From an uncultured Solirubrobacterales bacterium (GTDB lineage Bacteria > Actinomycetota > Thermoleophilia > Solirubrobacterales > Thermoleophilaceae), in contig OY970313.1 in NCBI GenBank assembly GCA_963716445.1, positions 422,731 through 486,730 of the forward strand: DNA of 64,000 nucleotides. Reading direction: 5' to 3'. Made by a program: the position numbers and the translations under genes. This document shows positions 5,787-52,474 of this stretch, one piece after another. The first letter of the stretch is position 1. Every line of letters starts with the position of its first letter. The notes beneath the pieces were generated by a model. The model was given only the letters and a program-made list of their open reading frames with translations. It was not told the DNA's origin and ran no database searches.

Positions 5787-7604
5787 TTGAGCGGTAGCCG
5801 TGCGCTGGCGCGTGCCGCCAGCATCGCGACCGCCGTCGTACTCCTATCGATCGCGACAACGGCCACGTCGGCGCAGGCGATCTTCGACTTCTCCCCGCCA
5901 CAGACCCTCTCGCATCCAGAGGAGATTGCGACGGATCAGCGGTTGGCGATCGACTCCCGAGATCGCGTTACAGTCGTCTGGAGGGACACCAGCGCCGAGA
6001 ACGCCGTCGTCCGGGCCGTGCGTATCGACCCTCACGGTGTCCCAGGTCCTGTCTACACCCTCTCCGAGGCAGATCGGTCGTCGTCCGAGCCGAGGGTCGC
6101 GGTCGACTCCCAGGGTCGTGCCACCGTGGTGTGGTACAGCGGTCCCGGTGAGTACGTGGTCCAGGCCGTGCGCATCGACGCTGACGGGGTTCCCGGCCCG
6201 GTTTGGACTCTCGCAGGCGGTGGCGTACGCTCTCGCCCGGAGGTCGTAGTCGACTCTCGCGACCGCGCGACAGTGGTGTGGGCCCAGGAGGGAGGAGGGC
6301 TAAGCCCCGCGGTCGCCATGCGGCTCGAGCCGGATGGGACCCCCGGTCCGATCCAGGCGCTCTCCGAACCGGGCGAGTCGGGCTTCCTTCCTCGGGCTGC
6401 GGTCGACTCCCGCGACCGGGTCTCCGTGGCTTGGAGCGCCGACGACTCGATCAAGGCCACCCGCATCGGCGCCGACGGCATCAAAGGACCCGTCGTCTCG
6501 CTGTCGGAGCCCGGTTACTCCAGCTCGCACCAGTTGGCGATCGACTCGCGCGATCGCGCGACCGTCGTGTGGGAGCAGGAGAACGCCTTGACGTCACCGA
6601 GTGGCGACGTCGAGTTCGCGAGGAGGATCAAGGCTGTTCGCCTGAGTGACGAAGGTACGCTGGGGCAGGTTCGCTCGGTCTCCAGCGGGCCCGGTCGAGG
6701 GAGAGAGCCGCAGCTCGCGATCGATTCGCGCGATCGCGTCGTCGTCGTGTGGCGGGACGAGCCCGTCAACTACCTGGGCAACGGCGGGTCTGCGATCGAA
6801 GCGCTCCACTTGAGGAGCAGGGATGGCGCTCCCAGCGGACCTGAGACTCTCGTCCTCTCGTCCCCGGGCGCAGGCGACGTAACCTCGCCAATGGTCGCTA
6901 CGGATACGCGCGGCCGGGCTGTGGTGGTCTGGGACAGCTTCAGCCTCATGGAGTTCCCTGAGCTGCCGGGCTTTCCGTTACCCATCGGCGGTTTTCAATT
7001 GGCGGGCCTGAGCTCCCTGGGCGTTCAGCTCCCCGTCCAGACGCTTTCTGACACCGGCTACGGGGTCAGCTATTCGGCGCCTAACCTGGTGATCGATTCC
7101 CGCGATCAGGTCGTGGTCGCCTGGAGGCGGGACGAGTTCCAGGCGCACGCCGTTCAGATGGCCAGGCAGGTCGGGGCCGTGACACGCGACGGGCCGCCAA
7201 CACCGACTGACGCGCCAAGCCCTTCGCCGGACCGGCGCGAGCTGCGCTTTCCGGACCTGCCTGACGAGGGAGGTGAGGAGTTCCTGGCCATCGGCGCGAG
7301 GGGGGTCGTCGTCAACGGCCGGGTCGTCCTGCGCGGGGTCTGCGGGCCGGGACGCGACTGCGCCGGAGTGCTTGCGGTGTCGACGCGGGGCGGACTTCGG
7401 CGAGCGCAGCGGCGGATCATCGCGCGCGGTCGCTATCGCCTCTCCGCGGGCCGCCGGGGAAAGATCAGGGTGCGGCTGTCCAAGACCGGCCGGCGGTTCG
7501 TGAAGACTCGCGCGGAGCGTGTGGTAGGCGCCGAGGTCCGAATTCGGGGTCTCGGCGGTTCGGTTACGCGGATCAGCCTGCGGCTGGCGCGCGCGTCTCG
7601 CTAG
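5787..7604 (+). CDS. Secreted repeat protein (8 x ~45-70 aa '(A/V)(I/V)DSRDR(A/V)TVVW' units, probable beta-propeller) with a Pro-rich linker and basic C-terminal module
   Basis: TTG 5787 is preceded by GAGGAG and gives the signal peptide MSGSRALARAASIATAVVLLSIATTATSAQA. The listed ORF start 5706 lies in an AT-rich, non-coding-looking stretch. Confidence 0.75.
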   Translation: MSGSRALARAASIATAVVLLSIATTATSAQAIFDFSPPQTLSHPEEIATDQRLAIDSRDRVTVVWRDTSAENAVVRAVRIDPHGVPGPVYTLSEADRSSSEPRVAVDSQGRATVVWYSGPGEYVVQAVRIDADGVPGPVWTLAGGGVRSRPEVVVDSRDRATVVWAQEGGGLSPAVAMRLEPDGTPGPIQALSEPGESGFLPRAAVDSRDRVSVAWSADDSIKATRIGADGIKGPVVSLSEPGYSSSHQLAIDSRDRATVVWEQENALTSPSGDVEFARRIKAVRLSDEGTLGQVRSVSSGPGRGREPQLAIDSRDRVVVVWRDEPVNYLGNGGSAIEALHLRSRDGAPSGPETLVLSSPGAGDVTSPMVATDTRGRAVVVWDSFSLMEFPELPGFPLPIGGFQLAGLSSLGVQLPVQTLSDTGYGVSYSAPNLVIDSRDQVVVAWRRDEFQAHAVQMARQVGAVTRDGPPTPTDAPSPSPDRRELRFPDLPDEGGEEFLAIGARGVVVNGRVVLRGVCGPGRDCAGVLAVSTRGGLRRAQRRIIARGRYRLSAGRRGKIRVRLSKTGRRFVKTRAERVVGAEVRIRGLGGSVTRISLRLARASR

Positions 7605-36562: not shown

Positions 36563-37345
36563 TCACTCGAACGACCCCGCGTTGCCCTGTGCCTTGTTGA
36601 AGGCACAGCGGAACAGCTCGGGCTGGCCGACGGGCTTGCCGCCCGCGAAGCCACCGCGGTCGCCGTTGTCGTAGACGGTGACGTAGTGGAGCGTCTCCGG
36701 CGACGGGTTGGCCGGCACAGGCGCCGGGTCGGGCTCCCCGGCGCGCGGGTCGCCGCGCGAGAGATCGCTCACACCCTGCGAGCCGGCGGCGCGGGCCCCC
36801 GACGCGGTGGTCGTCAGCGTGGCGCTCATCTCGCGGCGGTCCTCGAGCCCGTCCGTCGGGTCGACGTCGGTAGACGCGGTCACCTCGTTGTCATCGACGC
36901 GCCCGGCGAGCTTCACGCGTGGCGCCGCACCGATCAGCTGCGCGGCGGTCGGCAGGTAGCCGCCTAGCTCCGTGCACGCTTGGGTGGCGAAGAAGTAGTC
37001 GTTCTTGCCGATGTCGCCGCCCACCACGGGGTAGGGGCTGGTCATCAGGCAGACCGTTCCGAGGTCGACCGTCTCGGGCGCGCAGCGGTCCAGCAATGCC
37101 CGCGCGCGGCGGCCGCCGACGCGGTCGGCGTTGCGGGCGCGACGCACCTTCGGGATCGCCGCCGCCGGGAACCTCGCGCGGGCGTCGAGGCGCAGCAGGC
37201 CGAACTTCCGCGGCTTCAGGCTCGGCCCCGGCAGCGACCGGTTCTTGGCCGCGTCGGACTCGGCCGTGGTGGAGAGGACGACCGCGACGAGGGCCACGAA
37301 CAGCGCCGAGCAGGCGAGCAGGCTCGAGAGGCGGGGGTTCGTCAT
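36563..37345 (-). CDS. Membrane-anchored or secreted protein, last gene of the giant operon (C-type-lectin/DUF1566-like segment, weak call)
   Basis: ATG 37345 follows AAGGAG and overlaps the upstream stop (ATGA). TM segment MTNPRLSSLLACSALFVALVAVVL, then YFFATQACTELGGYLPTAAQL. Confidence 0.65.
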   Translation of the reverse strand: MTNPRLSSLLACSALFVALVAVVLSTTAESDAAKNRSLPGPSLKPRKFGLLRLDARARFPAAAIPKVRRARNADRVGGRRARALLDRCAPETVDLGTVCLMTSPYPVVGGDIGKNDYFFATQACTELGGYLPTAAQLIGAAPRVKLAGRVDDNEVTASTDVDPTDGLEDRREMSATLTTTASGARAAGSQGVSDLSRGDPRAGEPDPAPVPANPSPETLHYVTVYDNGDRGGFAGGKPVGQPELFRCAFNKAQGNAGSFE

Positions 37346-40300
37346 TGCGGGCTCCTTTGGTGTCGGTCGGTACGGATGAAGGCTGGTGCGGGGGCGCGGC
37401 GACTGCGGGCGCCGGGCCCGCCGCGAACCGATGCGCCGGCCACTGCGGCGAGCAGGACGAGCGCGAGCAGGTACGGCGGCACGGTCAGGCCGCCCTCCTC
37501 GGACGCGTAGCGCGAGAACGCATGCGACTCCTCGATCGCCGCCTCCTCCTCGCGTTTCTCCTCGACCTGATAGGTCCGCGCCGGCGCGCCGCCTGGCGGC
37601 AGCGGCCGCACGATCGGCGGTGGCGGGGGCGGGGGGATCGCGGGCACGGAGGACGCGGCGCCGGCGGCGAGCGGCACGAACGGGGCGGCGGCGACGGCCT
37701 GCGGCGGCGGCGACGGCGCCAGCGACGGAGAGTTGGGCGCCGGCGGCGTCAGTGGCGGCGGCTCGAAGCTCGGCGGCGGCCCGCCGCCCGCCGGTGCCGG
37801 CCCCGGCGGAGCCGCGGGCGGCGCGGTCGGTGGCGGCGCCGGGCGCTCGAAGCGGTCGGGGCGCAGCGGACGGGTGCCGCATGGGCGCTGGACGCTGCCG
37901 TCGAGGACCGTGACGCGCTCCGAGTACGAGAAGCCTCCGGCGCTGATCGTCACGGTCGTCGTGCCGGCGTTGAAGGGGCACAGCAGCCCCGATGCGCCGG
38001 CGCTGACGACCTTGTCGTCGGGTCCGATCAGCGGCTTGCGCAGATTCGTCGAGTTGGGGTCCTGGGCGACGAAGTCGGCGATGTCGGGGTCGGAGGAGGT
38101 GAAGCGATACTCGGGCGAGATACGCGTCGAGCAGCCGGAGACCGTGCACTGCTCGGGCGGGAAGGCCGTGTAGGGGTCGCCGCCCGACGGATCCGGGTTG
38201 CCAGAGCCGGCGGATGCGCGTCCCCAGCGGTCGCCACCGCGTGGCCGGCGACCGAGGCCGCGAAAGAGCGCAGGCCGCGAGCGGCGGAGCAGCGTGCCGT
38301 CGGTCGCCTCCAGCGACAGGTCCTCGATCACCGGGATCAGCCGCGCAGTCACCGGTGCCCGATTGGTCGCCGGGTCGCGCTGATGGGCGTGCACCTCGAG
38401 CAGCAGCACGCCGCTGTCGCCGAACAGCGAGTCGGGCGAGTCGATCCCGATGACGCTCGCGACGGGCGAGCGGTAGCCGAGCGTGCCGGTGCCGAAGCTG
38501 GGGATCGTCTCCGCGGCGCCGGCGGGCACGCGCGTGAAGCGGTTCTCCTCCGGACGGTCGTAGACGTAGGCCGAGACGCCCTTCTCGACCAGCAGCCGCG
38601 CGACGACGTCGCCGTCGCTTGCGACGTTGAGCTTCGGCGTGAAGTGGCTGTTGAGGTCGCGGTTGCCCATCACGACGACCGGCACGCCGTCGGCCCGCGC
38701 GTCATCGAGGACCGCCGCCAGCCAGGGCAGCTGCGACTCGTCAGGGTTCTGGTGGGCGTCGCTGGCCGCGAGCGAGCCGCGCGAGTTGTCGATCACGACC
38801 ACACGCACCCGGCCGCCGGGGCCGTCGCCGTCGAACGCGTAGTGGGTGCGCGCACCGGCGCCGGGGGCGGCGCCGGGAATGCCGTCGTTCGAGATGCCGG
38901 TGGGTGGCGACGCGCCGCCGAGCGGCGCGGGGAACGCCGAGAACGAGCCCTTGAACGCCGGCGCCCCGAGCGGCGAGGCAGCGTCGCTCGAGCCGAGGGC
39001 GGGGAACACCGGCAACGCCGGCTGCGAGGCGAGCAGCGAGGCGAGGCGCAGCCCGTCGCCGGAGCCGAGGCCCGTGCGGACGCGGTTGCCCGTGTAGAGC
39101 AGCGCGCGCGGCCCGTCGCCGCCGCGCATGCTCGCGACCGTGCGCAGGGCCGCGGCGAGGGTGCGGTCCGGCCCGATCGACTGTGGCGCGAGATCCGTGC
39201 ACGGACCGTCGCACTGAGCGTGTCCGGCGACCGCGAGCCGCGCCGGGCCGGCGGGCATCGGAACCGGCGCGGTGCCGGCGGCGTCCGGGGGCGTGGCGGC
39301 ATCGCCGTAGCGGTAGATCCCAGCCGTCCGCACCCGGCTACGGATCGCCCGCCCGCCGCCGTTGCGTGCCGAGGAGCCGCGGCCGGCGGCGTCAGCCTCG
39401 CCGCTCCAGCCGCCGATCGCCCAGCCGTTGCCGGCTGCGTCGAGCGCGAGCGCCAGCACCGGGTCGCTCTTCAAGGGCCGGTCGGCGCCCGAGCCGGCGA
39501 ACGCGGTCCGCTGCTCGTCGACCCAGCCGGAGTCGGTCTCGCGCAGCAGGTAGCCGTCGCCGGGCAGCTGGAACGGCGGGAGGATCGGTGGCGGGACCGT
39601 CGGGTCCGGCTCGGGCAGGTCGTCGGCCGGCGGATAGGAGAGCTGAGGGACGACGGAGAGGACCGCCCGGATCGGGCGGCCTGGGGCGCTCGACCGGAAC
39701 GCGGCCGCCGCGACAGCGGTGGACCCGGGCAGCGGCTGGCTCGAGAAGCGCCAGGGGGCCGTCGGGCCGTCGCGCTCGATCGCGATGTGGCGCCCGGCCG
39801 CGACGGCGCCCCCGTCGGGGAGGGCGGCGACCGCCACCAGCCGCGGACGGCCCACGCGCACGCTGTCGAGCAGCGCCCGGGCCGAGGCGTCGACGCGCCA
39901 GGCGCCGCCGTCGTTGACGAGCAGGTCGCCGCCCGCCGCGACAATCGCCTGACGTCCGGCGAAGGCGATCGAGGTCAGGTCGGCGCCCGCGAGCTCGGCG
40001 GGGAGGGGCTCGGGCTCCCAGCTCTTGCCGTAGCCGAGCAGCACGCCGCCCTTGCCGACGGCGTAGCCGCGGTCGGGGTTGCCGGGCTCGAAGGCGACGT
40101 CCATCAGGTTGCCCTCGAAGCCGATCGGGACGCCCGGGTCGGCGCTCCAGAGGCCGTCGTCGGCGTTCCATTGCCACATCGCGCCGAGGTCGCCGACGGC
40201 GTGGGCGCGCGACGGCTCCGGCCAGGCGACGCCCCGCAGCGTCGAGCGGTTGACGCTCCCGCTGGAGGAGAGCAGGAACTCGCGCCGCCAGCCGCGACCC

Positions 40301-41802
40301 GGCGCGTAGCGCGCGACGCCGCCGTCGGCGCCGACCGCCAGCGCCGGCGAGCCGAGCGAGCCCGGCGCGGCGCCCGGCGCCGTCGTCACGTCGGCGAGCG
40401 GGGCGCGCAGCGACACCGGCCACGGCCGCAGGCGGCTCGGCGCGGGCACGAACGAGACCTCGACCGGTCCCTCCAGCCACCCCTCGTCGGCGCTGGCGAA
40501 CGCCCCGCTGGGACGGAAGTTGCCGCCACCGCCAGGCATGCGGACGAATGCGCCGTCGGTCAGGCGCAGGTAGGTGCCGCGGTTGCTGTCCTCGGCCCCG
40601 CCCGGATCGAGCGGGTTGGTGACGACGCGGGCGCCGAAGCCGGGGCCGCCCCAGGCAAAGCTGCGGTAGCCGCCCTGGCGCGAGAGCCGGGCGCCGAGCG
40701 CCGCGTCGCAGGCGCTCGCGTCGCACCACTCGCGGGTCACCTGGCCCGACGCCGTGTCGTAGAAGAGCGTGACGTCGAGCTGCGCGGCGCCGATCGTCGC
40801 CGCCAGGTCGATCCAGAGCCCGCCCTCGCGGACCGTCAGCGGCTGCGCGCGGCCGCCGAGCGGCTCGACGTCCGCGATCGCGCCCGCCGGGGCGTCACGG
40901 TCGGCGAACGGCGTGCCGGCGAGCTCGCGCGCCACCCAGGTCGCGCCGCCGGAGGCCAGGGTCCGCTCGAGCAGGACGACGCTGCGGCCGAGGGCTGGAG
41001 CGGCCTCGGCGATCGCCCAGGCGTCGTCGGCGTCGGTGGCGTCGATCGCCAGGATGCGGAAGGCGCTCTCCGAGCCTGCCGGGATCTCGACCGCCTCGCG
41101 CGTCCAGTCCGTGCCGTCGAAGTGGAGGATCGCGTCCGTCACGGGGCGGCCGGTGGCCGCGACGAGGACGCCGGTGCGGTCGCCCTCGTCGAACGCGGCG
41201 ATCGCTACCCGGCCGGCGCCCTGGTCCTCGGCGATCGCCTCGGCGGGACCGTCAGGGCCCGCGGGCAGTAGGACCTCTGGGGAAGGCGGCGCGAGCGCCT
41301 GGAAGGTGTCCGCACCCGGATCACGGTGGAGCAGGACCGCCTGGCTGCCGACCGGCCGAGCCGTGTCGCGCCCGACGAGCACAGCGCCGCCACGCGCGGT
41401 GGTCCGCGCGGAGAGTGGGTTGGGCGCCGGACCGCGGTAGGGATTGCCCTGCTCGTCGAGCGGGGTCTCGTAGACCTGCCAGCCGGTCGCGTCGGTGTGG
41501 CGCAGGAAGGCGAGCTGCGGCTCGGGGCTCAGCGGGTTCGCCGGCGCCCCGAAGGGGAGTTGGCGATCGCCTGCGCGCACCGCCCCGACGCTGAGCGGGA
41601 GCTCGCGAAAGCCCCATGCCTCGCCAGGCTCCCCGCCGGGGGCGGCGCCCATCAGCGTCATGCCGGGATCGGCCGGTCCGAGGAGCGGCAGCGGCCCGAC
41701 CGGCGGGCCCGCCGTCTGGCTGCTGCCGGGCGGCGAGGCGGTCAGCACGAGCGCGAGCGCGGCGACGAGCACGCCGCCGGCCATCGGGGGCTTGCGGCTC
41801 AC
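37342..41802 (-). CDS. Giant secreted protein (1486 aa): Ycf48/BNR-like propeller blades, degenerate metallophosphoesterase-like region, Big_2-like Ig domain, Pro-rich stalk and C-terminal TM anchor
   Basis: GTG 41802 overlaps the upstream stop (GTGA) with GGAGG upstream. Signal peptide MAGGVLVAALALVLTASPP. Blade-like DVAFEPGNPDRGYAVGKGGVLLGYGKSWE, then VVVMGNRDLN, then NAGTTTVTISAGGFSYSERVTVL. Tail PPYLLALVLLAAVAGASV followed by basic residues. The upstream 416 codons of listed ORF 37342..43050 are rejected. Confidence 0.75.
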   Translation of the reverse strand: MSRKPPMAGGVLVAALALVLTASPPGSSQTAGPPVGPLPLLGPADPGMTLMGAAPGGEPGEAWGFRELPLSVGAVRAGDRQLPFGAPANPLSPEPQLAFLRHTDATGWQVYETPLDEQGNPYRGPAPNPLSARTTARGGAVLVGRDTARPVGSQAVLLHRDPGADTFQALAPPSPEVLLPAGPDGPAEAIAEDQGAGRVAIAAFDEGDRTGVLVAATGRPVTDAILHFDGTDWTREAVEIPAGSESAFRILAIDATDADDAWAIAEAAPALGRSVVLLERTLASGGATWVARELAGTPFADRDAPAGAIADVEPLGGRAQPLTVREGGLWIDLAATIGAAQLDVTLFYDTASGQVTREWCDASACDAALGARLSRQGGYRSFAWGGPGFGARVVTNPLDPGGAEDSNRGTYLRLTDGAFVRMPGGGGNFRPSGAFASADEGWLEGPVEVSFVPAPSRLRPWPVSLRAPLADVTTAPGAAPGSLGSPALAVGADGGVARYAPGRGWRREFLLSSSGSVNRSTLRGVAWPEPSRAHAVGDLGAMWQWNADDGLWSADPGVPIGFEGNLMDVAFEPGNPDRGYAVGKGGVLLGYGKSWEPEPLPAELAGADLTSIAFAGRQAIVAAGGDLLVNDGGAWRVDASARALLDSVRVGRPRLVAVAALPDGGAVAAGRHIAIERDGPTAPWRFSSQPLPGSTAVAAAAFRSSAPGRPIRAVLSVVPQLSYPPADDLPEPDPTVPPPILPPFQLPGDGYLLRETDSGWVDEQRTAFAGSGADRPLKSDPVLALALDAAGNGWAIGGWSGEADAAGRGSSARNGGGRAIRSRVRTAGIYRYGDAATPPDAAGTAPVPMPAGPARLAVAGHAQCDGPCTDLAPQSIGPDRTLAAALRTVASMRGGDGPRALLYTGNRVRTGLGSGDGLRLASLLASQPALPVFPALGSSDAASPLGAPAFKGSFSAFPAPLGGASPPTGISNDGIPGAAPGAGARTHYAFDGDGPGGRVRVVVIDNSRGSLAASDAHQNPDESQLPWLAAVLDDARADGVPVVVMGNRDLNSHFTPKLNVASDGDVVARLLVEKGVSAYVYDRPEENRFTRVPAGAAETIPSFGTGTLGYRSPVASVIGIDSPDSLFGDSGVLLLEVHAHQRDPATNRAPVTARLIPVIEDLSLEATDGTLLRRSRPALFRGLGRRPRGGDRWGRASAGSGNPDPSGGDPYTAFPPEQCTVSGCSTRISPEYRFTSSDPDIADFVAQDPNSTNLRKPLIGPDDKVVSAGASGLLCPFNAGTTTVTISAGGFSYSERVTVLDGSVQRPCGTRPLRPDRFERPAPPPTAPPAAPPGPAPAGGGPPPSFEPPPLTPPAPNSPSLAPSPPPQAVAAAPFVPLAAGAASSVPAIPPPPPPPIVRPLPPGGAPARTYQVEEKREEEAAIEESHAFSRYASEEGGLTVPPYLLALVLLAAVAGASVRGGPGARSRRAPAPAFIRTDRHQRSPQ

Positions 41803-43418
41803 CTCGCCTCCGCGACCTTGAAGGCGAGCTTGGTCGGGTAGCGCTCGCGGCTCAAGCGCAGCACGAGCTCGCGGCGGCCGGGACGGAACGTTCGCCGCGG
41901 CGTGCGCGCCACGACGCGGTTGCGGCGCTTGGCCAGCAGTTGCACCCGCGCACGCCGCGTCACGGTGAAGCTGACCGTCAGCCGCAGGCCGTCGAGCCGG
42001 GTACGGACGCGCTTGATCAGCGGCGCCAGCCGTCTCGGCGGCCTGGCCGGCGGCTCGGTGATCGGGTCGGGCTCGAGCGGCGGCGGCGCGAACAGCTGCG
42101 AGTCGTCCACGGGCGGGCGGTCCGGGATGAACTGCTCGGCCGCCTCGTTGGGCCGGAAGTCGATCGTCGTCTGGAACGCCGGATCGGTGTCGCGCGCCGG
42201 CCGCGTGCCATCGGTGTAGTGGAAGAGCCAGCCTGCCCAGGTGACCAGCCAGCAGTCGGTCGCCGACGTGCAGGCGATGCGCGCCGCCGCGCCGCGGCCA
42301 GCGCCGGCGGCTGGCAGTCGCGTGACGCTCGTCGTGCCGTCCGCCTCGATGCGAGCGACGGTTGCCTTCGAGTTGGTGCTGCGGCGCTCCCCGAAGGGCA
42401 CGACGGTCGCGAAGGCGGCGTTCGTGCCGGGGATCGCGGCGACGTCGCCGAAGCGGTCGGTCTCGCCAAGCCCCGTCTCGTCGAGCGCGATCTCCTCGAG
42501 GGCGCCGCCGGCGAGCCGCGCCGCCAGCGGTGGGCGCGGGACCGAGCCGCCCTCGGGCGCGGACGGGCCGGAGGCAGCGCCGCCGCCGACCGCCCAGAGG
42601 CTCGTCCCGTCGCTGTCGGCCGCGAGCAGCTCCGTCCCGTCGGGCGGGACGCCGTCGATCGGGACCGGCTCGAACGGGTCGTTGGCGAACGAGCCATCGG
42701 CGACGGCATGGATCAGACGCGGCGTCGGCTCGGGCTCGGCGAGGTCGACCGGCTCGCCACGCTCCTCCGGGCCGCGCCCGACGAACGTGGTCTCGTAGAC
42801 CGTGCCCGCATGAGCCTCCATGTCGCTGACCCCACGGCCCTGCGGGCCGTAGACGCTCTCGAGATCGGTCCCATCCCAGTGCAGGTGGAAGGCGCCGACG
42901 CGCTCGCCGAGCGGATCCTGGGAGCCGACGCCGCCGAACCAGCAGTCGTTCGGCCCGCTGCAGGTGGCCGAGTGCATCTGGCGGAACGGGTCGGGCGACT
43001 CGACCGCCGTGCTGTAGGAGCCGATGACCTGCCCGTCCTTGAAGCGGCACAGCGCGAGGCCCGAGCCGGCCCGCGGGCGGCTCGGCTCGCTGACCACCCA
43101 GAACTCGGTCGGCCCCGCCCAGGCGATGCGTGCGGTGTCGCCGGGTCCCCCGCAGACCGTGGCGAGCCGGCGCCAGCTCACGCCGTCGTAGCTGTAGAGG
43201 CCACGCGAGATCGTGTCGTTGCCCTCGACGGCCAGCAGCCCACGGTTCGCCGCCCAGAGCTTCAGGTCGCCGGGAGCGCCGAGCGGCACCTTGAACGGGG
43301 CGCCCGGCGGCGGCGGAGGCTGCTCGAGCCGCCAGATCGGGTCGCCGGCCTGGGCCGCCGCGGGCAGCGCCGCGACGGCGAGCGCGACGAGCGTGACGGC
43401 CTGTCGCCTCCTACTCAC
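41799..43418 (-). CDS. Secreted beta-propeller-like protein with a Pro-rich linker and basic C-terminal module
   Basis: Signal peptide [24 protein letters not shown]. Repeated blades of the form 'DCW.V...G.L.HY.DG'. The GTG overlaps the ftsH stop by 8 nt. Confidence 0.75.
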   Translation of the reverse strand: MSRRRQAVTLVALAVAALPAAAQAGDPIWRLEQPPPPPGAPFKVPLGAPGDLKLWAANRGLLAVEGNDTISRGLYSYDGVSWRRLATVCGGPGDTARIAWAGPTEFWVVSEPSRPRAGSGLALCRFKDGQVIGSYSTAVESPDPFRQMHSATCSGPNDCWFGGVGSQDPLGERVGAFHLHWDGTDLESVYGPQGRGVSDMEAHAGTVYETTFVGRGPEERGEPVDLAEPEPTPRLIHAVADGSFANDPFEPVPIDGVPPDGTELLAADSDGTSLWAVGGGAASGPSAPEGGSVPRPPLAARLAGGALEEIALDETGLGETDRFGDVAAIPGTNAAFATVVPFGERRSTNSKATVARIEADGTTSVTRLPAAGAGRGAAARIACTSATDCWLVTWAGWLFHYTDGTRPARDTDPAFQTTIDFRPNEAAEQFIPDRPPVDDSQLFAPPPLEPDPITEPPARPPRRLAPLIKRVRTRLDGLRLTVSFTVTRRARVQLLAKRRNRVVARTPRRTFRPGRRELVLRLSRERYPTKLAFKVAEAR

Positions 43419-45444
43419 TCTCCGCCTGCGTCTCGCGCGCCCGCGGCGCGTCGAGGTCGCCCTCGACGAAGGTGATCGGCGTCGGCTTGACCGTGGAGAG
43501 CACCGCGTCGAGCGCGACGCCCGAGAGCGTCTCCTGCTCGATCAGCGCCTTGGCGGTCTCCCCGACCGCTTCCCAGTTGCGGTCGAGGATCGTCTCCGCG
43601 CGGTCGACGGCCTCGCCGACGATCCGCTCCACCTCGCGGTCGATCAGCTCGAGCGTCGCCGGGCCGACGGAGCCCAGCTCCTGCAGCGACGCGCCGAGGA
43701 ACACCTCGCCGGCCTTCTCGCCGATCGTCACCGGCCCGAGCTCGGGCGACATCCCGTAGGACGTCACCATCTGGCGGGCCAGGCCGGTGGCGGCGTGGAG
43801 GTCGTCGTGGACGCCGGTCGAGACGACGCCGAACTCCAGGCGCTCGCCGGCATAGCCGGCGACGATCGCGATCAGGTGCCGGCGCATGTCCGGCTCCTGC
43901 ATCACGGTCGCGTCGCGATCGGTGAGCATGTGCGCGGCCGTGCCGAGCTGGCGCCCGCGGGCGACGATCGACAGCTTCTGCGCGGCTACCTTCTGGCCGA
44001 TCGAGCGGATCGCGACGGCGTGCGCGGCCTCGTGGATCGCGATCACCGACTTCTCGTGGCGGGTGAGGGGGTGGCTCTTGCGCGCCGGTCCCGCGACGAC
44101 GCGGTCGATCGCCTCCTCGAGCGCCGGCTGGTCCATCTCGCTGCGGCCCTCGCGCACGGTCAGCAGCGCGGCCTCGTTGATGACGTTCGCCAGCTCGGCG
44201 CCGGAGAAGCCTGAGGTGAGCTTGGCGATCTCCTCGAGCGAGGTGTCCGGCGCCAACGGCCGCTTGCCGCAATGCAGGCGCAGGATCTCGATCCGGCCGT
44301 GCACGTCGGGCACGTCGACGGTGACCTGGCGATCGAAGCGGCCCGGGCGCAGCAGCGCCGGGTCGAGGATGTCCGGCCGATTGGTCGCGGCGAGCACGAC
44401 GATGCCGGCGTCGCCCTCGAAGCCGTCCATCTCGACCAGCAGCGCGTTGAGCGTCTGCTCGCGCTCGTCGTTGCCCTGGCCGACGCCCGCGCCACGCTTG
44501 CGCCCAGCCGCGTCGAGCTCGTCGATGAAGATCAACGCCGGAGCCATCTTGCGCGCCTTCGCGAACAGGTCGCGGACGCGCGCCGCCCCGACGCCCACCA
44601 GCGACTCGACGAAGTCCGAGCCCGACAGCGAGAAGAAGGCCGCATCGGCCTCGCCGGCTGTCGCCTTGGCGAGCAGCGTCTTGCCGGTGCCGGGCGGGCC
44701 CACGAGCAGCACGCCCTTCGGCGCGCGCGCTCCCACCGATGCGTACTTCGAAGGGTCGGCGAGGTAGTCGCGGATCTCGCGCAGCTCGGCCACCGCCTCG
44801 CCCGCGCCGGCGACGTTGTCGAAGGTCGTGCGGTCGGGCGAGCTCTCGCCTCGCTTGCGCCCCTTGCCGGTGAACTTCGAGAAACCGGCGAAGGCGCCGG
44901 CGCCACCGTCCTGGCCGAGGCGCGTGAACAGCACGAACAGGCAGACGAGCAGCAGGATCGGCAGCAGGAACTGGACCAGGATCTGCTTGGCCGGCTTGTC
45001 GGCCTGCTGGTCGATCCCCACCGCCGCGCCGCTCGCCGTCAACCCCTTCAGGAGCGCCGAGGTCTGGGCGTCGGACTTCGGGTAGGCGGCGTAGAGCAGC
45101 TGGCCGCCCTTCGTGTCGACCACCACGCGGGCGTCCTGGTCGAGTAGCGTCGCGGCGTCGATGCGCTTGGCGTCGGCGAGCTCGGTGACGTCGCTGAGCG
45201 GCACCCGGTCGCCGTCCGAGCTCGGCTTGATGTCGCCGAGCAGCGCGAAGAAGAGAATCGTCAGCGCGAGCGACGCAACGAGCAGGAAAGTGTTGAGAGG
45301 GTCCTTCGCGAGCCAGCGCAGCACCGCGACGGCGCCCTCCCCGGCACGGCCTGCGACGTCGCCCAGGACACGGGCGACGTCGCGGGACTGCACCGGGGTG
45401 GGGCGCCGCGGAATGCGCCGGTCGCCGTTACCGGCGGCCGCCAC
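43411..45444 (-). CDS. ftsH: ATP-dependent zinc metalloprotease FtsH
   Basis: Two TM segments, Walker [14 protein letters not shown], Walker [13 protein letters not shown], and the HEAAHAV zinc site. Confidence 0.9.
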
Positions 45445-47311
45445 TTCCCTGCTTCTTGAGCTTGAGCGTGACCGTGCGGGTCGAGCTCTTCGGCGTTCCG
45501 CCCGTCGGCGAGAACGTCAGCTTGACCTTGACCTTCAGCTTGCCCTTCTTGCGCAGCAGCCTCTTCGCGGCGGCGCTCGGCTTGAGCCTGAGCTTGAAGG
45601 TGCCGGCCTTGTTCGCCGTCAGGACGACACGGCCGACCTTGATCTTGCGCTTGCCGGACTTCGCCGTGCCGACCAGCTCGAGCTTGCCCGCGCCCGGCAG
45701 CTTGACCGAGAGGGTCGCCGCGCCGGTCCTGGACGAGATCGTCGTGCGCGGCACCGAGAACACGTTGCTCGGCTTGGTCGGCGGCGGGGTGCTACCACCC
45801 GGCGGCGGGGTGCTCCCGCCCGGGGGCGGGGTCGTTCCACCTCCGCCTCCGCCGCCTCCGCCGGCGCCCTTGCTCCAGTCGATCGTGTTGACGCCCGCCT
45901 GAGCGAGCGCCTGGATCGCCTCGGGGAGCGGGGCGTAGTCGTTGCCGAACAGCTGGCCCTGAGTGCTGTCGGACAGCGCGTTCTGCCAGTAGTCCTTGAC
46001 CGTGCGGGCCTTGCCCTCCTCGGCCGGGACGTTGCCCCAGGCGTCGGCGTTGTCGTCGAACAGCAGGCCGTAGGTGAACGTGCAGATGCCGTAGCCCGCC
46101 GGGGAGTTTACGCCGCTGGTCTGCGACCAGTCGCCCAAGGTGCTGGCCGGCACGTTGGTGAACGTGGTGGCCTGGCAGTTGGCGCCCTTCAGCCCGTCGG
46201 TGCGGAAGCCGAACGCGTCGGCGGTCGGCTCGGTGAACGTCCCCGAGCCGTTCGGGATCTGCGTCCAGTAGGTGTCGTTGTCGTCGGCCTCTGGAGTGAT
46301 CGCGAGGCTCGGGCTGGCGTTGCGGGCAGTCGAGATGTCCGAGTAGCCCACCGAGCCGTCGGTGCTGATCAGCTTGCTGACCAGCGCCCCGTTGCCGTTC
46401 GAGCAGCCGCTGGTGAGCTGGTCGGTCGTGTCGGCCTCGCTGCCGGGGCCGTTCGGGGTGCCGGCGCAGTCGGCGCGCGGGCCGAATGTCGCTCCCGGCC
46501 ACTCACGGGTCCGGTTGGTGCCGGTCGCGTAGGTGGTCAGCCAGCCGCGGCCGCCGTTGATCGTGTTGAGGTAGTCCTTGAGGGTGAACGACGTGCCGGA
46601 GTCGTCGAAGCGGACGACGCGGATGATCGGGACGTTGCAATCGACGCCGTCGGCCGCGAGCTCGGGGAAGACCTCGGTCCAGTTGTCCGAGCTCGACTCC
46701 TTCGCCCAGATCGCCTCGAACTGCGCCTTGGTGAACCGCACGCGGATCACGTCGTCCGGCGTGGAGTTGCCGTCCTTGTCCTGCTCGGCCGTCTTCGCGG
46801 CTGTTGGCAGCAGGTTCACGTCGCAGCCATTGGGGAAGTTGACCAGCGGCGCCACCGCACCGACGCCGGCAGGCACCACGTGGACGACCGCGTTGTCGGC
46901 GGCGTTCGCGTCGGACGCTGGATCGCCGGTGGTGCCGGCGTTCATCTGGGCGACCTCGGCCGGGCTCGGGGCCTCGTCGGTCATGCCGAAGCGCGGAGCG
47001 AGCGAGCGGTCCTTCATCGCCGTGCGCCCCGCGCCACTGCCCTGGGCCTCGTAGGTGACCTCGATAGTCCCGAAGCCGGGGGTCCCGATGCAGAAGTGGT
47101 TCTTGAAGTTGAAGTTGAAGAGGGTGTGGGCGTCACGGGCGAAGGACGCGCCGCGGCCCGTGACGTCGGGCCCGGCGCACTTGCCGGTCGTGAAGGCCGC
47201 GTTCGCCTGAGGAGCCAGGCTGAGCGCGGCGAGCACCGCGGCGGCGAGGGCGATCAGCCCTGCTAGCGCGGCGCGAGAGCCCCATCGGGGGGCAAAGCCA
47301 GTGAGGCTCAT
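45428..47311 (-). CDS. PstS-like periplasmic phosphate-binding-fold protein fused to a Gly/Pro linker and basic C-terminal module
   Basis: ATG 47311 follows AAGGAAAGGAA, with a signal peptide. PstS-type motifs GRGASF, QGSGAG, RFDDSGTSFTLKDYL, DGSVGYSDISTA and GYGICTFTYGLLF. Then GGGGGGGGTTPPPGGSTPPPGGSTPPP plus a Lys/Arg-rich beta module. Confidence 0.8.
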   Translation of the reverse strand: MSLTGFAPRWGSRAALAGLIALAAAVLAALSLAPQANAAFTTGKCAGPDVTGRGASFARDAHTLFNFNFKNHFCIGTPGFGTIEVTYEAQGSGAGRTAMKDRSLAPRFGMTDEAPSPAEVAQMNAGTTGDPASDANAADNAVVHVVPAGVGAVAPLVNFPNGCDVNLLPTAAKTAEQDKDGNSTPDDVIRVRFTKAQFEAIWAKESSSDNWTEVFPELAADGVDCNVPIIRVVRFDDSGTSFTLKDYLNTINGGRGWLTTYATGTNRTREWPGATFGPRADCAGTPNGPGSEADTTDQLTSGCSNGNGALVSKLISTDGSVGYSDISTARNASPSLAITPEADDNDTYWTQIPNGSGTFTEPTADAFGFRTDGLKGANCQATTFTNVPASTLGDWSQTSGVNSPAGYGICTFTYGLLFDDNADAWGNVPAEEGKARTVKDYWQNALSDSTQGQLFGNDYAPLPEAIQALAQAGVNTIDWSKGAGGGGGGGGGTTPPPGGSTPPPGGSTPPPTKPSNVFSVPRTTISSRTGAATLSVKLPGAGKLELVGTAKSGKRKIKVGRVVLTANKAGTFKLRLKPSAAAKRLLRKKGKLKVKVKLTFSPTGGTPKSSTRTVTLKLKKQGSGGRR

Positions 47312-47384
47312 TGCGAGTTGTTCCTTTCCTTGACTGAACCGTTCGTCGCGAGAGTCGTCTCTATCCCTCCGGTCCGTCAAGTCA

Positions 47385-47450
47385 CTTCACGGAACTTCTA
47401 CGACGGCTTCACCATCGCTTATCCGACACTTCTCCAGATCGTCTCCAAAT
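47385..47450 (+). promoter_or_regulatory. Six phased boxes CTTCACGGAA CTTCTACGACGG CTTCACCATCG CTTATCCGACA CTTCTCCAGAT CGTCTCCAAAT in the only intergenic gap of the giant operon
   Basis: 10/12/11/11/11/11-nt units, 74-139 nt upstream of ATG 47311. Written on the + strand, so inverted relative to that gene. Confidence 0.5.
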
Positions 47451-47520
47451 GGGAACGGTGCGTTAGCGCCGGCGCCGAGCGCAACTGGTTGGGCCAACGC
47501 CCCGGAAGGGGAGAGGAGGC

Positions 47521-49521
47521 TTACTGACGCGTGCGACGCTCGTGACGCCGACCGCCTGCTCGGATGACGGCCCGCACCGAGGCGTTGAGGCCCCTCCCGC
47601 CCCGTGACGCGACGAAGGAGACGGCGATCCGGGCGCGGACCCGCCGGCGGCGGCGCAGCTCGGCGCGGTAGCGACGCACCGGGCGGAGCAGGATGCGCAC
47701 CGTCCCGGGCGCGCGGGCGCGCTTGGAGTCCGTGGCGAGCGTGCGCAGTCTGCGCGGCCTGCCGGCACGGGCGCGTGCGACGGCCTTGACGCCGCCGGCG
47801 GCTGGCACGGATACGGCCACCACGACAGAGCCGTCGCGCCGCGAGCGGGCGCGGGCCGATAGCCGCGGGCCGCCGCGGTCGGGGTCCTCCTCGATCGTTC
47901 CGTCGGGCCCTCCAGCTCCGGGACCGGCGGGCGGCGGCTTGGGCGGCGGGTCGGGCTGGCGGGTGGCGACGAATGCGTCGGCGCGCTGGTTGGCGTCGCC
48001 GAAGAAGAGGTTGCCGGCGAGCGACGCGAACGCGACGCGCCCGCCGTCGCTCGAGATCGTCACGCCGTTGAGGACGTCGGCGTCGATGTCGCCGCCCGCT
48101 GCCGAGCGGGTCACGCGCTCCAGCGTCCGCTCGACGAGGTCGACCACGTACAGCTCGCGTGCGGCCGGCACTGGGCGCGGATCGCCCACGAGCTGCAGCG
48201 CCGGCAGCGCGAAGCGGGTCCGGACGGTCGTGATCGCCAGATGGCGACCGCTCGAGGCCATCGCGACGCCGCTCAGCGGCGGACTCGTGGCCGGGTCGCC
48301 GTTGGTCGTGTCGCGCGTGAGCTCGACCGTCGCCTGCTTGCGGGCGGCCCCCGGTTTCATGTCGGTCACGAAGAGGTCGAGCCCCGGACCGGTGAAGGCG
48401 AGCGGGCGCGGTCCTGAGCCGGTGAGGAACGCCACCGTGTAGCCGTCGCCGCTGAGCGCCGGCAGCTGCGCGCCGATGCCCGCGCGGTTCGCCTCCTGGT
48501 CGGTCAGCGGCCCGTAGCAGGGACCGGTCGAGACCTGGTCGAAGACCGTGTCGCTCCCAGGCGGGCAGGCGGGGTCGTCAGGGTCCGCGAGGCCCGTCAC
48601 ACGGCGGGTCGGCGCGGCCGGCCCGTCGGCCACGCGCCGCCAGAGGTAGTAGAGGAAGCCCACGTCGGGGTTCTCGCCGCCGAGCAGGCGCGTCTGAGCC
48701 GCGGCGTTGGCGCCCGTCCAGGCGACCGTGGTGCCGTCGGCGCTGAGCGCCGCTCCGATCGCGCCGCCCGCCGGCTCGCCGCCGGGGGCCGTCCGCGTAA
48801 CCAGCGTCGTCGTGTCGGCAGCGCGGTCACGGAGCAGCACCTGGCCCGCGCCGGCGTCCGGCGCGCCGCCGGCCGGCAGGTCCGAGGCGACGTCGGTGCG
48901 GAACGCGACCCGCTGCCCGTCGGCGCCGATCGCCACCCCGCGCGAGACGTCGGCGCCGGGATTGCTGCCCGGAAGCGGGAAGGCGGGCGGGCCATAGCCG
49001 GCGGGCACGTCGCCGCCGTCGAGCGCCGAGACGAGATCGAAGGCGCCCGGCGCGCCGATCGGGACCGTCACGTCGCGCACGTAGACGTCGAGGTTGTCGT
49101 TGACGTCCGTGGCGACCAGCGACTCGGCCGTGGCGAACGCGACGAAGCGCCCGTCGGCGCTGATCGACGGGTTCGACGCTCCACGGCGCACGAACGAGTT
49201 GTCGTCCTCCTCGAAGAGGTCGCCGTCGGCGACCTTCTCGAGCGCGCGCGTCGCCAGGTCGAAGCGGAAGACGCCGCCCGCGCGGTAGCGGCCTGGCGGG
49301 TCGGGATCGTCGTCGGCGAAGAAGTTGCGCGCCCGGGTCTGCATCGCCACATAGCGCCCGTCGCCCGAGATCGCCGCGAAGACCGTCGCGTCGTCGCCCT
49401 GCTCGAGCCGGCCGAAGTCGGCCGAGACGATCTCGGCGCCGTTGCCGTAGAAGCCGGCGGCCGACGCCGGCAGGGCAAGCGAGACGGCAACGGTCGCGGC
49501 CAGCGTGCGCGCCGATCTCAT
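47521..49521 (-). CDS. Secreted TolB/PD40-like beta-propeller repeat protein with a basic C-terminal module
   Basis: ATG 49521 overlaps the upstream stop (ATGA). Signal peptide MRSARTLAATVAVSLALPASAA. PD40-like repeats ISGDGRYVAM and SISADGRFVAFATAESLVATDVNDNLDVYVRD. The upstream 242 codons of the listed ORF are rejected. Confidence 0.75.
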   Translation of the reverse strand: MRSARTLAATVAVSLALPASAAGFYGNGAEIVSADFGRLEQGDDATVFAAISGDGRYVAMQTRARNFFADDDPDPPGRYRAGGVFRFDLATRALEKVADGDLFEEDDNSFVRRGASNPSISADGRFVAFATAESLVATDVNDNLDVYVRDVTVPIGAPGAFDLVSALDGGDVPAGYGPPAFPLPGSNPGADVSRGVAIGADGQRVAFRTDVASDLPAGGAPDAGAGQVLLRDRAADTTTLVTRTAPGGEPAGGAIGAALSADGTTVAWTGANAAAQTRLLGGENPDVGFLYYLWRRVADGPAAPTRRVTGLADPDDPACPPGSDTVFDQVSTGPCYGPLTDQEANRAGIGAQLPALSGDGYTVAFLTGSGPRPLAFTGPGLDLFVTDMKPGAARKQATVELTRDTTNGDPATSPPLSGVAMASSGRHLAITTVRTRFALPALQLVGDPRPVPAARELYVVDLVERTLERVTRSAAGGDIDADVLNGVTISSDGGRVAFASLAGNLFFGDANQRADAFVATRQPDPPPKPPPAGPGAGGPDGTIEEDPDRGGPRLSARARSRRDGSVVVAVSVPAAGGVKAVARARAGRPRRLRTLATDSKRARAPGTVRILLRPVRRYRAELRRRRRVRARIAVSFVASRGGRGLNASVRAVIRAGGRRHERRTRQ

Positions 49522-51431
49522 CGAACGCGCACCCAGCGTCGCCAGACGGTCCGGTTGCCGGCGCGGTCGCGTGCGGTGACCCGCACGCGGTAGCGGCCGG
49601 CCGCGTCGTAGCCGTGCCGCGCGACGCGCGTCCGAGCAGCGCGAGCTCCGTCGCCGAAGCCGACGCGGACGGAGAGGCGCCGCAGCCCCGAGCCCGCTCG
49701 GCGCGGACCATCGGTGACGCGCACCGTCAGCGAACGGCCGCGGCGGCGCAGGCGGACCCGCGGCCCGTTGCGGTCGACCCGCAGGACGCCGGTCAAGCTC
49801 CCGGTCTCCTGGCCGGCGTCGTCGATGGCGAAGACCTGGATCCGGTGGCGGCCGTTCTCGACGTCGTCGCGCGTGAGGCGCGCGTGGAGGCCCCGGACGC
49901 CCTCGACCACCGGCTCGTCGTCGACGCTGACGGAGTACGTCACGCCGCCGATCGCGCTCACCGCCCGATCCCATGCGATCGGTATCCGCCGGCTGCGCCG
50001 CCAGCCGTCCGGTAGCAGCACGAAGAACGGGTCCGGCGGCGCGTCGACCACCGCCGCGACGATCTGGGCGCCGCTGCCGCTCCCCTGCCTCCAGGCGACG
50101 ATCGCATCGCCGAGACCGGAGCCACCCATCGTCAGCGTCCCGACGCCGCCGCCGCTCGGGGCGCTCAGGTCGGTCGGCTCGTCGACCCCGTCGGCGCGCC
50201 GCTCCTGAACGGCGACGAAGCCGGCGCCGTCGCGCAGCTCGCGCCACGCCGCCACGGCGGCGCCGGTCTCCGCGAGGTCGACCAGCGGGTCCCCGGCGAC
50301 GGAGCTGGTGCCGGCGTCGAGCCGCTCGGCGGGCCCGGTGGAGGCGTCGTTGCCGCTGGCGAGGAGCGTCGTGGCCGCCGAGCCGAAGCCGATCGCGAAC
50401 GCGCTCGTCGGGTCGACGGCGACGCTCGGCGGCCCAGGCGCGGTGTGCGGCGATCCGTCAGCCAGCCGGGCGCCGCCGAACTGCCCGGAGGTCTCGGCGA
50501 ACACGTCCGGGATCTCGTTGACGAAGATCCGTGCGGCCCCGAGCCTGCCGGCCTGCCCGGGCTGCTGGCGGAAGGCGATGGCTCCCTGGCCGAAGCCCGA
50601 GACGTCGAGCGAGAACGCGTCCGCGGCGCCTCGCAGGGGCGCTCCGCCGTAGGAGTCGGGGCTGGCTTGGAGTGGGATCCCGACCTGCGAGCCGAACACC
50701 CGCCGCGCCCAGATCCGGTCGACGAAGTCGTCGCCAGGCTCCTGCCAGGCGACGATGCCCTGGCCCTGGACGTCGATCCCGACCTTCGGCGAGTTGTCCT
50801 CGGCCGGCGTTCGCACGGGTATCGCCGGGTTGCGGTCGACCGGGCCGCCCATCACCGACCAGAGGCGGCCGTTGTAGCGCGCGAGGCGCACGTCTGCCCT
50901 GAGATAGCCGGGCGGGTTGGCGGAGCTCGTGTCGGTGACCACGCGGTAGACGAGGTAGGCCTGCCCGCCGCGCGCCATCGCCAGATCGGGGAAGGTGGCG
51001 CTCGCCTCGCCGACGTTGAAGTCGATCGGCACCGGCGCCTGGAAGCCACTCGATCCCGGGTCGAGCGTGGCCGAGAACAGCCGGTCGCTGTCGAGCCCAT
51101 GCTCCTGGACCCAAACGACCGCCAGCCGCCCGCCGTCGCCGGCGCCGATCCGCGGCCAGCTCGAGTCGAACGCCTGACCGACGTCCACCCGCTGGGGCGC
51201 GCTCCAACGGCCGTCCTGGAAGAGCGCGGCGAATACGTGGTCGTGGCCCTCGACCTGCTTGAGGTAGACGATCCCGCCGCTTCCGTCCTCGGACATCGCG
51301 GCGTCGGCGACCTCGACGATCGAGTCGGCCGGCCCGTCGATCGGCCGCACGTCGGAGACCACCGCCCCGGCGAGCGGCGCGGCGCAGGCGACACCGACGA
51401 GAGCGGTCGCTGTGGCGAGCGGCAGGCGCAT
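49518..51431 (-). CDS. Secreted repeat (propeller-like) protein with a C-terminal Ig-like/basic region; first gene of the giant operon
   Basis: Signal peptide MRLPLATATALVGVACAAPLAGA. Repeated '...G.(A/I)VVW(V/Q/R)' strands resembling 5787..7604. Confidence 0.75.
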   Translation of the reverse strand: MRLPLATATALVGVACAAPLAGAVVSDVRPIDGPADSIVEVADAAMSEDGSGGIVYLKQVEGHDHVFAALFQDGRWSAPQRVDVGQAFDSSWPRIGAGDGGRLAVVWVQEHGLDSDRLFSATLDPGSSGFQAPVPIDFNVGEASATFPDLAMARGGQAYLVYRVVTDTSSANPPGYLRADVRLARYNGRLWSVMGGPVDRNPAIPVRTPAEDNSPKVGIDVQGQGIVAWQEPGDDFVDRIWARRVFGSQVGIPLQASPDSYGGAPLRGAADAFSLDVSGFGQGAIAFRQQPGQAGRLGAARIFVNEIPDVFAETSGQFGGARLADGSPHTAPGPPSVAVDPTSAFAIGFGSAATTLLASGNDASTGPAERLDAGTSSVAGDPLVDLAETGAAVAAWRELRDGAGFVAVQERRADGVDEPTDLSAPSGGGVGTLTMGGSGLGDAIVAWRQGSGSGAQIVAAVVDAPPDPFFVLLPDGWRRSRRIPIAWDRAVSAIGGVTYSVSVDDEPVVEGVRGLHARLTRDDVENGRHRIQVFAIDDAGQETGSLTGVLRVDRNGPRVRLRRRGRSLTVRVTDGPRRAGSGLRRLSVRVGFGDGARAARTRVARHGYDAAGRYRVRVTARDRAGNRTVWRRWVRVR

Positions 51432-51643: not shown

Positions 51644-52474
51644 ATGACTCGCAACCGCCCACTCGCGGTCGTGGCCGCCCTCGCCGCGTCCGCGTCGCTC
51701 GCCACCGCCACCGCCGCCACGACGGCGTCGGCGAAGTCCACGCTTACCCTGAGCGGCTCGACCTCGGTCGCCCCGCTGGTCAAGGAGCTTGCCACGGCCT
51801 TCATCGCCCAGCCGAAGTACAAGGGCAAGGTGAAGTTCGTCCTGCTCCAGGGCGGCTCGGACATCGGCATCACCGACGCCGCGCGCGGCCGCGTCACGCT
51901 CGGCATGTCCTCGCGCGATCCCAAGCCGGCCGATCCGAGCGGCATCGTCTTCAACAAGATCGCGCGCGACGCGGTCTGCGTCGTGACGAACCCGTCGAAC
52001 CCGATCCCGACGCTCAGCCAGAAGCAGATCCAGGACGTCTTCTCCGGCCGGATCCGCAACTGGAGCCAGCTGCCGGGCGCACGCGCGTCGGGCCCGATCG
52101 ACCTGGTCGTCCGCACCGCGGCCTCAGGTACCCAAGACGCGTTCCAGAACATCTTCATGGGCCAGAGCCTGCGCGTGGCCGGCAGCGCGACCACCAAGTC
52201 GTCGAACGGCCTCCAGGCCCAGGCGATCAAGTCCAACCCGAACGCGATCGGCTACGCGTCGTTCAACTTCACGAAGGGCCTCTACGACGTGCCCTACGCG
52301 GGCGTGCGCTGCAACCTGCGCAACGCCAAGTCCGGCCAATACGGCGGCGCGCGCAACTTCTTCCTGGTCAGCCGCGGCACGCCACGCGGCGCGGCGAAGG
52401 CCTTCATCCGCTTCATCCGCCGGAGTGCGACCGCCAAGCGCATCACGGCGACCAACTGGGTCCCGCTGCGTTAG
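51644..52474 (+). CDS. pstS: Phosphate ABC transporter substrate-binding protein PstS
   Basis: LSGSTSVAPLV, QGGSDIGI, ARDAV and IGYASF (PBP_like_2 pattern), with pstCAB downstream. Confidence 0.9.
   Translation: MTRNRPLAVVAALAASASLATATAATTASAKSTLTLSGSTSVAPLVKELATAFIAQPKYKGKVKFVLLQGGSDIGITDAARGRVTLGMSSRDPKPADPSGIVFNKIARDAVCVVTNPSNPIPTLSQKQIQDVFSGRIRNWSQLPGARASGPIDLVVRTAASGTQDAFQNIFMGQSLRVAGSATTKSSNGLQAQAIKSNPNAIGYASFNFTKGLYDVPYAGVRCNLRNAKSGQYGGARNFFLVSRGTPRGAAKAFIRFIRRSATAKRITATNWVPLR

Follow-up and report, generated by a model that had tools for sequence, protein, structure and literature searches.

Three secreted proteins encoded in a 64,000-nucleotide stretch of the genome of an uncultured Solirubrobacterales bacterium (assembly GCA_963716445.1, contig OY970313.1, positions 422,731 to 486,730; hereafter the window) end, as judged from profile comparisons, in one homologous domain of about 100 amino acids (aa) which is absent from the family catalogues. 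The domain is a predicted immunoglobulin (Ig)-like sandwich with an extreme positive charge, and its most likely function, with a probability of roughly 0.55, would be the non-covalent, charge-based retention of exported proteins on the cell envelope; both the retention and the anionic partner are what we infer from sequence features. The genome comprises 2.6 Mb in a single contig with a GC content of 71%. An earlier note on the window had proposed that five of its proteins, designated here A to E, share a Pro-rich linker and one Arg/Lys-rich C-terminal module. All five tails lie where they had been placed and are highly cationic (net +22 to +30), but a single shared module is supported for B, C, and E by an independent profile and is not supported for A, whose likeness is marginal, or for D, which carries a PKD domain. 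Likewise, the Pro-rich linker is present in A, B, C, and E, whereas the tail of D is preceded by an Ig-like domain instead. The proteins and their parts are as follows, in window coordinates.

41799-43418 (-): protein A, with a Sec-type signal peptide and no Pfam family
42018-42125 (-): Pro-rich linker of A
41802-42017 (-): tail of A, a shorter cationic Ig-like sandwich of seven predicted strands without a helix, net +22
45428-47311 (-): protein B, secreted, 627 aa, PstS-like substrate-binding, with a signal peptide, Gly/Pro linker, and cationic tail
45776-45868 (-): Gly/Pro-rich linker of B, GAGGGGGGGGGTTPPPGGSTPPPGGSTPPPT, with a Pro plus Gly fraction of 0.53
45452-45775 (-): tail of B, cationic Ig-like domain, Lys-rich (21 Lys, 10 Arg), net +30
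47521-49521 (-): protein C, secreted PD40-repeat protein, 666 aa, with a Pro-rich linker and cationic tail
47872-47961 (-): Pro-rich linker of C
47551-47871 (-): tail of C, cationic Ig-like domain, Arg-rich, net +29
49518-51431 (-): protein D, with a Sec-type signal peptide and a PKD domain at its end
49521-49763 (-): tail of D, PKD domain, net +23, with a second Ig-like domain (49764-50039) just before it
5787-7604 (+): protein E, secreted repeat protein, 605 aa, with a Pro-rich linker and cationic tail
7188-7280 (+): Pro-rich linker of E
7281-7601 (+): tail of E, cationic Ig-like domain of a two-cysteine subtype (VCGPGRDCAG), net +24

Homology of the C-terminal tails

The direct pairwise comparison of the last 130 residues of the five proteins with phmmer gave 22 bits between B and C and a weak match between B and E, and the tails of A and D matched none of the five. 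The tail of B is kept in more than 170 orthologues at 59-86% identity, and a profile made from these orthologous tails, searched against six-frame open reading frames (ORFs), matched the extreme C-termini of C and several other large proteins. Upon iteration, the hidden Markov model (HMM) converged on 14 ORFs of the genome, each scoring at least 62 bits, with a sharp gap to the next-best ORF at 10 bits; a genome search of this kind was the check that the earlier note had proposed. The tail of E also matched that of a paralogue at 1818923-1820878 (phmmer, 1.2e-8).

A second profile was built independently of the genome, from 119 foreign representatives which are each less than 50% identical to any genome member, and was searched against 12,988 ORFs. 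This profile recovered 13 of the 14 genome members, with B at 80.7 bits (E-value 5.5e-23), C at 53.0 bits (2.3e-14), and E at 24.9 bits (1.3e-5). The maximum reached by shuffled versions of the same tails (300 per tail) was 11.2 bits for B, 3.7 for C, and 5.0 for E. Since the scores of the independent profile far exceed those of the shuffles, the similarity among B, C, and E reflects homology rather than Arg/Lys composition. Neither the iterated genome HMM nor the independent profile matched the tail of A or D.

These controls bear on another explanation of the resemblance, namely that GC bias acting on beta-rich sequence has produced a mere richness in Arg and Lys, with no shared domain at all. 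For B, C, and E this explanation was rejected on the profile and the shuffles. It also fits poorly with the acidic bodies of the same proteins, with the use of Lys by the B tail in a genome of 71% GC, and with the conservation of the tails among orthologues. A and D, on the other hand, resemble the family in composition and in a generic Ig-like fold only. As an account of the family, GC bias is extremely improbable.

The alignment of the tails of this genome reveals a common order of elements, in which the first strands are followed by the motif AGxVxVxLxLS, a short basic helix (ARRxLxRxGRL), and two further strands before the end. A pair of cysteines near strand 2 (CxxxxxC, as in CGPGRDC, CSAADGPC, and CNSRYDC) sets apart E and its paralogues at 803302-805200 (+) and 1818923-1820878 (-), which suggests a disulfide-stapled variant.

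The tail of A stands at the edge of detection. Its comparison with the family by hhalign returned P-values of 4e-5 (probability 70%) and 4.9e-4 (32%), which are marginal, and the alignment spans four A strands only, placed onto strands 2-5 of the family. In the AlphaFold model, the tail forms a compact sandwich of seven strands and lacks a helix; the model has a predicted local distance difference test (pLDDT) score of 86, and its best matches in the PDB, as found by Foldseek, are generic or designed immunoglobulin folds. The A tail is 58-78% identical among its own orthologues, and a profile made from it found no paralogue in the genome. On these comparisons it may at best be a distant relative in truncated form, and it is not counted as a member of the family.

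The tail of D, by its profile match, belongs to another family and is an ordinary PKD domain (PF18911, residues 584-628, 7.6e-8, 32.8 bits against a gathering cut-off of 27). The Ig domain ahead of it is a weak Big_13-like match. PKD domains (PF18911/PF00801) and the domain of B, C, and E have the Ig-like sandwich fold class in common; however, the latter does not match the PKD models, and the copy in D is unusual for a PKD domain only in its net charge of +23. Hence, the idea that a shared domain ties all five proteins into one family does not survive; their common ground is a physical property and, as described below, a conserved operon. The signal peptide of D (MRLPLATATALVGVACAAP..., 51380-51431 (-)) holds a possible relaxed lipobox, VGVAC, and D may be lipid-anchored on top of its cationic PKD tail. 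No lipobox is otherwise evident.

Fold, charge, and position of the domain

The AlphaFold model of the B tail, obtained from an alignment of 29 rows, has a pLDDT of 91.6 and a predicted template modelling score of 0.79, and consists of seven strands with a helix at residues 68-77, before the sixth strand. Foldseek matched it to generic Ig-like sandwiches only, with a template modelling (TM) score of at most 0.64 (CRIg/Vsig4, CTLA-4, and a GbpA domain); over the models of both the A and the B tail, the top TM scores against the PDB were 0.64-0.66, with no specific relative. The Ig-like fold suggested at the outset is thus borne out by prediction for the A and B tails, and for D by its PKD assignment.

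Among the match columns of the family (149 representatives), Lys and Arg account for 24.5% of residues and Asp and Glu for 2.4%. The strands of the same representatives strictly alternate hydrophobic and basic positions, the hydrophobic residues facing inward and Lys/Arg outward. The median net charge is about +24 to +25 for the tails and -35 for the bodies; in the window, the bodies of B, C, and E have isoelectric points of 4.1-4.9, and those of A and D a net charge of -26. Among the top 148 representatives, the tail is Arg-dominant in 125 and Lys-dominant in 23. Because both versions exist, and because the B tail holds 21 Lys in a 71% GC genome, the charge of the tail appears to be selected and not a by-product of GC content.

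So marked an opposition between tail and body could mean that the cationic tail pairs with an acidic passenger, either its own or that of an adjacent molecule, in the self-assembly of a surface layer or complex, or that it masks charge during folding. The strongly acidic bodies (median -35) and strongly basic tails (median +25) would suit such pairing, and the products of the conserved operon might together build a single assembly. Pairing is nevertheless quite improbable, as the charges of tail and body are uncorrelated (r = -0.10) and the passengers are structurally unrelated.

The position of the domain is nearly invariant. Between its end and the stop codon lie 0-13 aa in every one of the 14 genome copies, and no more than 15 aa in 139 of the top 148 representatives. 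One protein among these 148, P0224 (467 aa), carries the sole tandem pair (residues 266-370 and 366-467). The 40 aa upstream of the domain contain 18% Pro as against 7% in the body (n = 98, Wilcoxon p = 2e-17).

Distribution and passengers

A profile search of 1.84 billion cluster representatives found 2,996 at an E-value of at most 1e-3, and 81 at most 1e-10. The domain is present in 108 of the 151 sampled genomes of the order Solirubrobacterales, in all 6 sampled families and typically in 1-15 copies each, and in none of the approximately 289 sampled genomes of the phylum outside the order (E-value at most 1e-5). As far as searched, it is confined to Solirubrobacterales. Since the search profile derives from a single genome, these numbers are to be read as minima. 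Sequence searches of Pfam, NCBIfam, and the PDB with the proteins, 12 tails, and the tail profile returned no family match, and the domain is a member of no family catalogued in them. The literature searches found no description of the domain, nor of surface anchoring in Solirubrobacterales, and the database names of the carriers are either 'hypothetical protein' or the name of the passenger alone.

The passengers are diverse. In this genome, they include the PstS-like binding protein, an S8 subtilase with a fervidolysin-type prodomain, PD40 proteins, five giant paralogues of 1,340-1,460 aa with NHL/FN3/PD40 repeats, and several proteins with no known domain. For example, the body of B has a periplasmic-binding fold of the PstS-like kind (PF12849 at 3.8e-8; TIGR00975 at 9e-17, which is under the cut-off of that model), and the body of C matches PF07676 (PD40) at 4.8e-5. 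The body of E had no significant match in the Pfam scan, and the Pfam and NCBIfam scans assigned no family to A or E. A Sec-type signal peptide begins each of the five window proteins (5/5); that of C, as read from the sequence, is MRSARTLAATVAVSLALPASAAG. Similarly, 13 of the 14 family members of the genome have a recognisable signal peptide. The exception, 225061-225924 (+), is a protein of 287 aa with only the last part of a propeller body, and the ORF just upstream (224573-225010) gives a weak match; it is probably a truncated or frameshifted copy. Taken together, the position, range, and carriers support the view that the family works like a modular address label at the C-terminus of varied exported proteins.

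Probable retention on the cell envelope

The most likely use of such a tag would be to keep proteins on the cell. The protein would be exported through its Sec-type signal peptide, the flexible linker would span part of the wall, and the polycationic sandwich would bind the envelope non-covalently and mostly through its charge, with a wall glycopolymer or acidic lipid head groups as candidates for the anionic partner. Binding proteins, proteases, and propeller proteins would thereby be kept at the surface. This reading is drawn from the combination of a signal peptide, an acidic passenger, a Pro-rich spacer, and a terminal polycationic domain on unrelated passengers within one Gram-positive order.

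The genome encodes one sortase and, by a regular-expression scan, about three LPXTG-like ORFs, compared with 14 proteins bearing the tail. Sortase signals resemble the family in that they serve C-terminal surface display after a Pro-rich, wall-spanning segment in Gram-positive lineages, display being a predicted role here. The tails of the family differ from them, and the earlier note was right that they are not sortase signals, as none of the five has an LPXTG motif, a hydrophobic segment, or a short charged stub. The genome search found no SLH domains. It did find two LCP ligases, which make wall-attached polymers likely. Conexibacter woesei, of the same order, is Gram-positive with an A1-gamma peptidoglycan (PMC3035278).

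The proposed job is that of CWB2 (which binds the anionic polymer PSII), SLH, GW/SH3-8, and SLAP, i.e., the non-covalent hold of Sec-exported proteins on wall polymers (PMC5817068, PMC4973711), and conserved Arg has been implicated in the binding of CWB2 and SLH (PMC5817068). However, the folds differ, and those modules act as tandem repeats or trimers at the N- or C-terminus, whereas the Solirubrobacterales domain is a single Ig-like copy, last in the protein, with a far higher net charge. No SLH, CWB2, LysM, GW, SLAP, or choline-binding match was found by Pfam in the five proteins, 12 tails, and eight paralogues.

Several points weigh against retention by charge. A domain of +25 to +30 net charge is an unusual passenger for the Sec pathway. 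The family domain is strictly C-terminal and in single copy, which is more typical of sorting signals read by a machinery, and known non-covalent wall-binding modules are usually tandem repeats placed at either protein end (PMC5817068). A search of the genome for a TagF-type teichoic acid polymerase came back empty, and therefore the partner is probably not a classical glycerol-phosphate teichoic acid. Lastly, 43 of the 151 genomes of the order gave no match, which may reflect the sensitivity of a profile made from a single genome.

The strict position invites the explanation that dedicated machinery recognises the domain as a C-terminal signal for secretion or sorting, as happens with the C-terminal domain (CTD) of the type IX secretion system (T9SS) of Bacteroidota, and that the domain may, once exported, be removed or swapped for a covalent anchor; the earlier note had likewise mentioned a common export route. 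By its anatomy, the T9SS CTD (PF18962/TIGR04183) is the closest analogue of the Solirubrobacterales domain, each being a modular, single-copy, Ig-like sandwich of some 80-100 aa with which many otherwise unrelated exported proteins of one lineage end. The two differ in that the Solirubrobacterales domain is polycationic and contains a helix, and in that its host is Gram-positive, with no outer membrane to cross. T9SS CTDs are not known for so extreme and so conserved a charge. The Pfam and NCBIfam scans of the whole proteins and of 12 tails gave no sequence match, with no Por_Secre_tail or TIGR04183 hit in the tails up to an E-value of 10. Likewise, no candidate machinery was found, the genome searches with SprA_N and Por_Secre_tail being empty in this genome and in the control genomes too. 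Furthermore, the unrelated Ig-like domains in A and D share with the family nothing except charge. A sorting signal is therefore regarded as unlikely.

Alternatively, the tail could be an adhesin for external polyanions such as extracellular DNA, polyphosphate, acidic exopolysaccharide, or the negative surfaces of clay and humic matter in soil, which would fix the proteins to matrix or particles and not to the wall of the cell itself. The evidence from charge is identical for this idea and for retention on the envelope. Solirubrobacterales are typical of soil, the family is represented overwhelmingly by uncultured members of the order with metagenome-assembled genomes, and the lack of a detectable teichoic acid polymerase would be as expected. 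On the other side, substrate-binding proteins, of which B is one, serve the cell only when close to their own transporter, and the restriction to one lineage suggests a lineage-specific partner. Sequence analysis alone cannot separate an external polyanion from the envelope, but with these two arguments it appears the less probable target, and it too is considered unlikely.

A conserved operon with three types of cationic tails

The charge-based retention favoured here gains from the genes around B. On the minus strand of the window (37342-51431), the genes of D, C, B, ftsH, A, and a giant protein of 1,486 aa form one operon, in which stop and start codons overlap or lie close together. A relative whose B tail is about 68% identical has this gene order too (D-like, C-like, B-like, FtsH, A-like, giant; L013:6128-20684), and all four A/B/C/D-like orthologues in its syntenic operon retain tails of +17 to +25, again with acidic bodies. 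The conserved operon holds three different types of cationic Ig-like tail, and because these share only charge, charge is taken as the functional property. The short variant of A and the PKD domain of D would thus reach the same physical end as B and C through other Ig-like domains.

The giant (37342-41802 (-)) lacks a cationic tail of the Ig-like kind. Its C-terminus runs from a Pro-rich stretch through an acidic segment and a hydrophobic helix to a basic stub, an arrangement that looks like a C-terminal membrane anchor, and there is no LPXTG motif. The canonical PstS of the pstSCAB operon (51644-52474 (+)) has no signal-peptide cysteine and no cationic tail.

Cationic tails outside the family were also noticed elsewhere in the genome on acidic, secreted-looking ORFs, at 2485518-2486771 (-), 1841095-1842780 (+), 1016723-1018531 (-), 1672310-1675024 (+), and 2429622-2431688 (+). 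Four of the five tails look beta-rich and Ig-like, and one of these four follows a body which, by eye only, resembles a copper-binding cupredoxin; the fifth is helical and rich in Lys/Arg after a Pro-rich linker. These few candidates were picked by eye, the charge scan of all ORFs for cationic tails being swamped by Arg-rich, out-of-frame ORFs at 71% GC.

A bolder extension, which is put forward tentatively and is rather doubtful in its full form, is that Solirubrobacterales rely on charge as the address for most of the proteins on their surface, and not on sortase or lipid anchors. Any Ig-like C-terminal domain of about +20 to +30 would then serve, whatever its sequence, by binding a lineage-specific anionic polymer, and such domains would have arisen convergently several times in one operon.

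Implications

Solirubrobacterales are abundant in soil and rarely cultured, and to our knowledge nothing is known of how they retain secreted proteins on the cell. What the window adds is a separation of homology (B, C, and E) from analogy (A and D), with independent-profile and shuffle controls. The domain tags about 3,000 protein clusters, and a single genome may encode as many as 15 tagged proteins. It is thereby a convenient marker for the probable surface proteins of Solirubrobacterales, and a family definition would let thousands of 'hypothetical proteins' be annotated. If the charge-based anchor is true, the domain would be a fold not yet represented among the few modules that target proteins to the wall non-covalently, and would offer a compact display tag.

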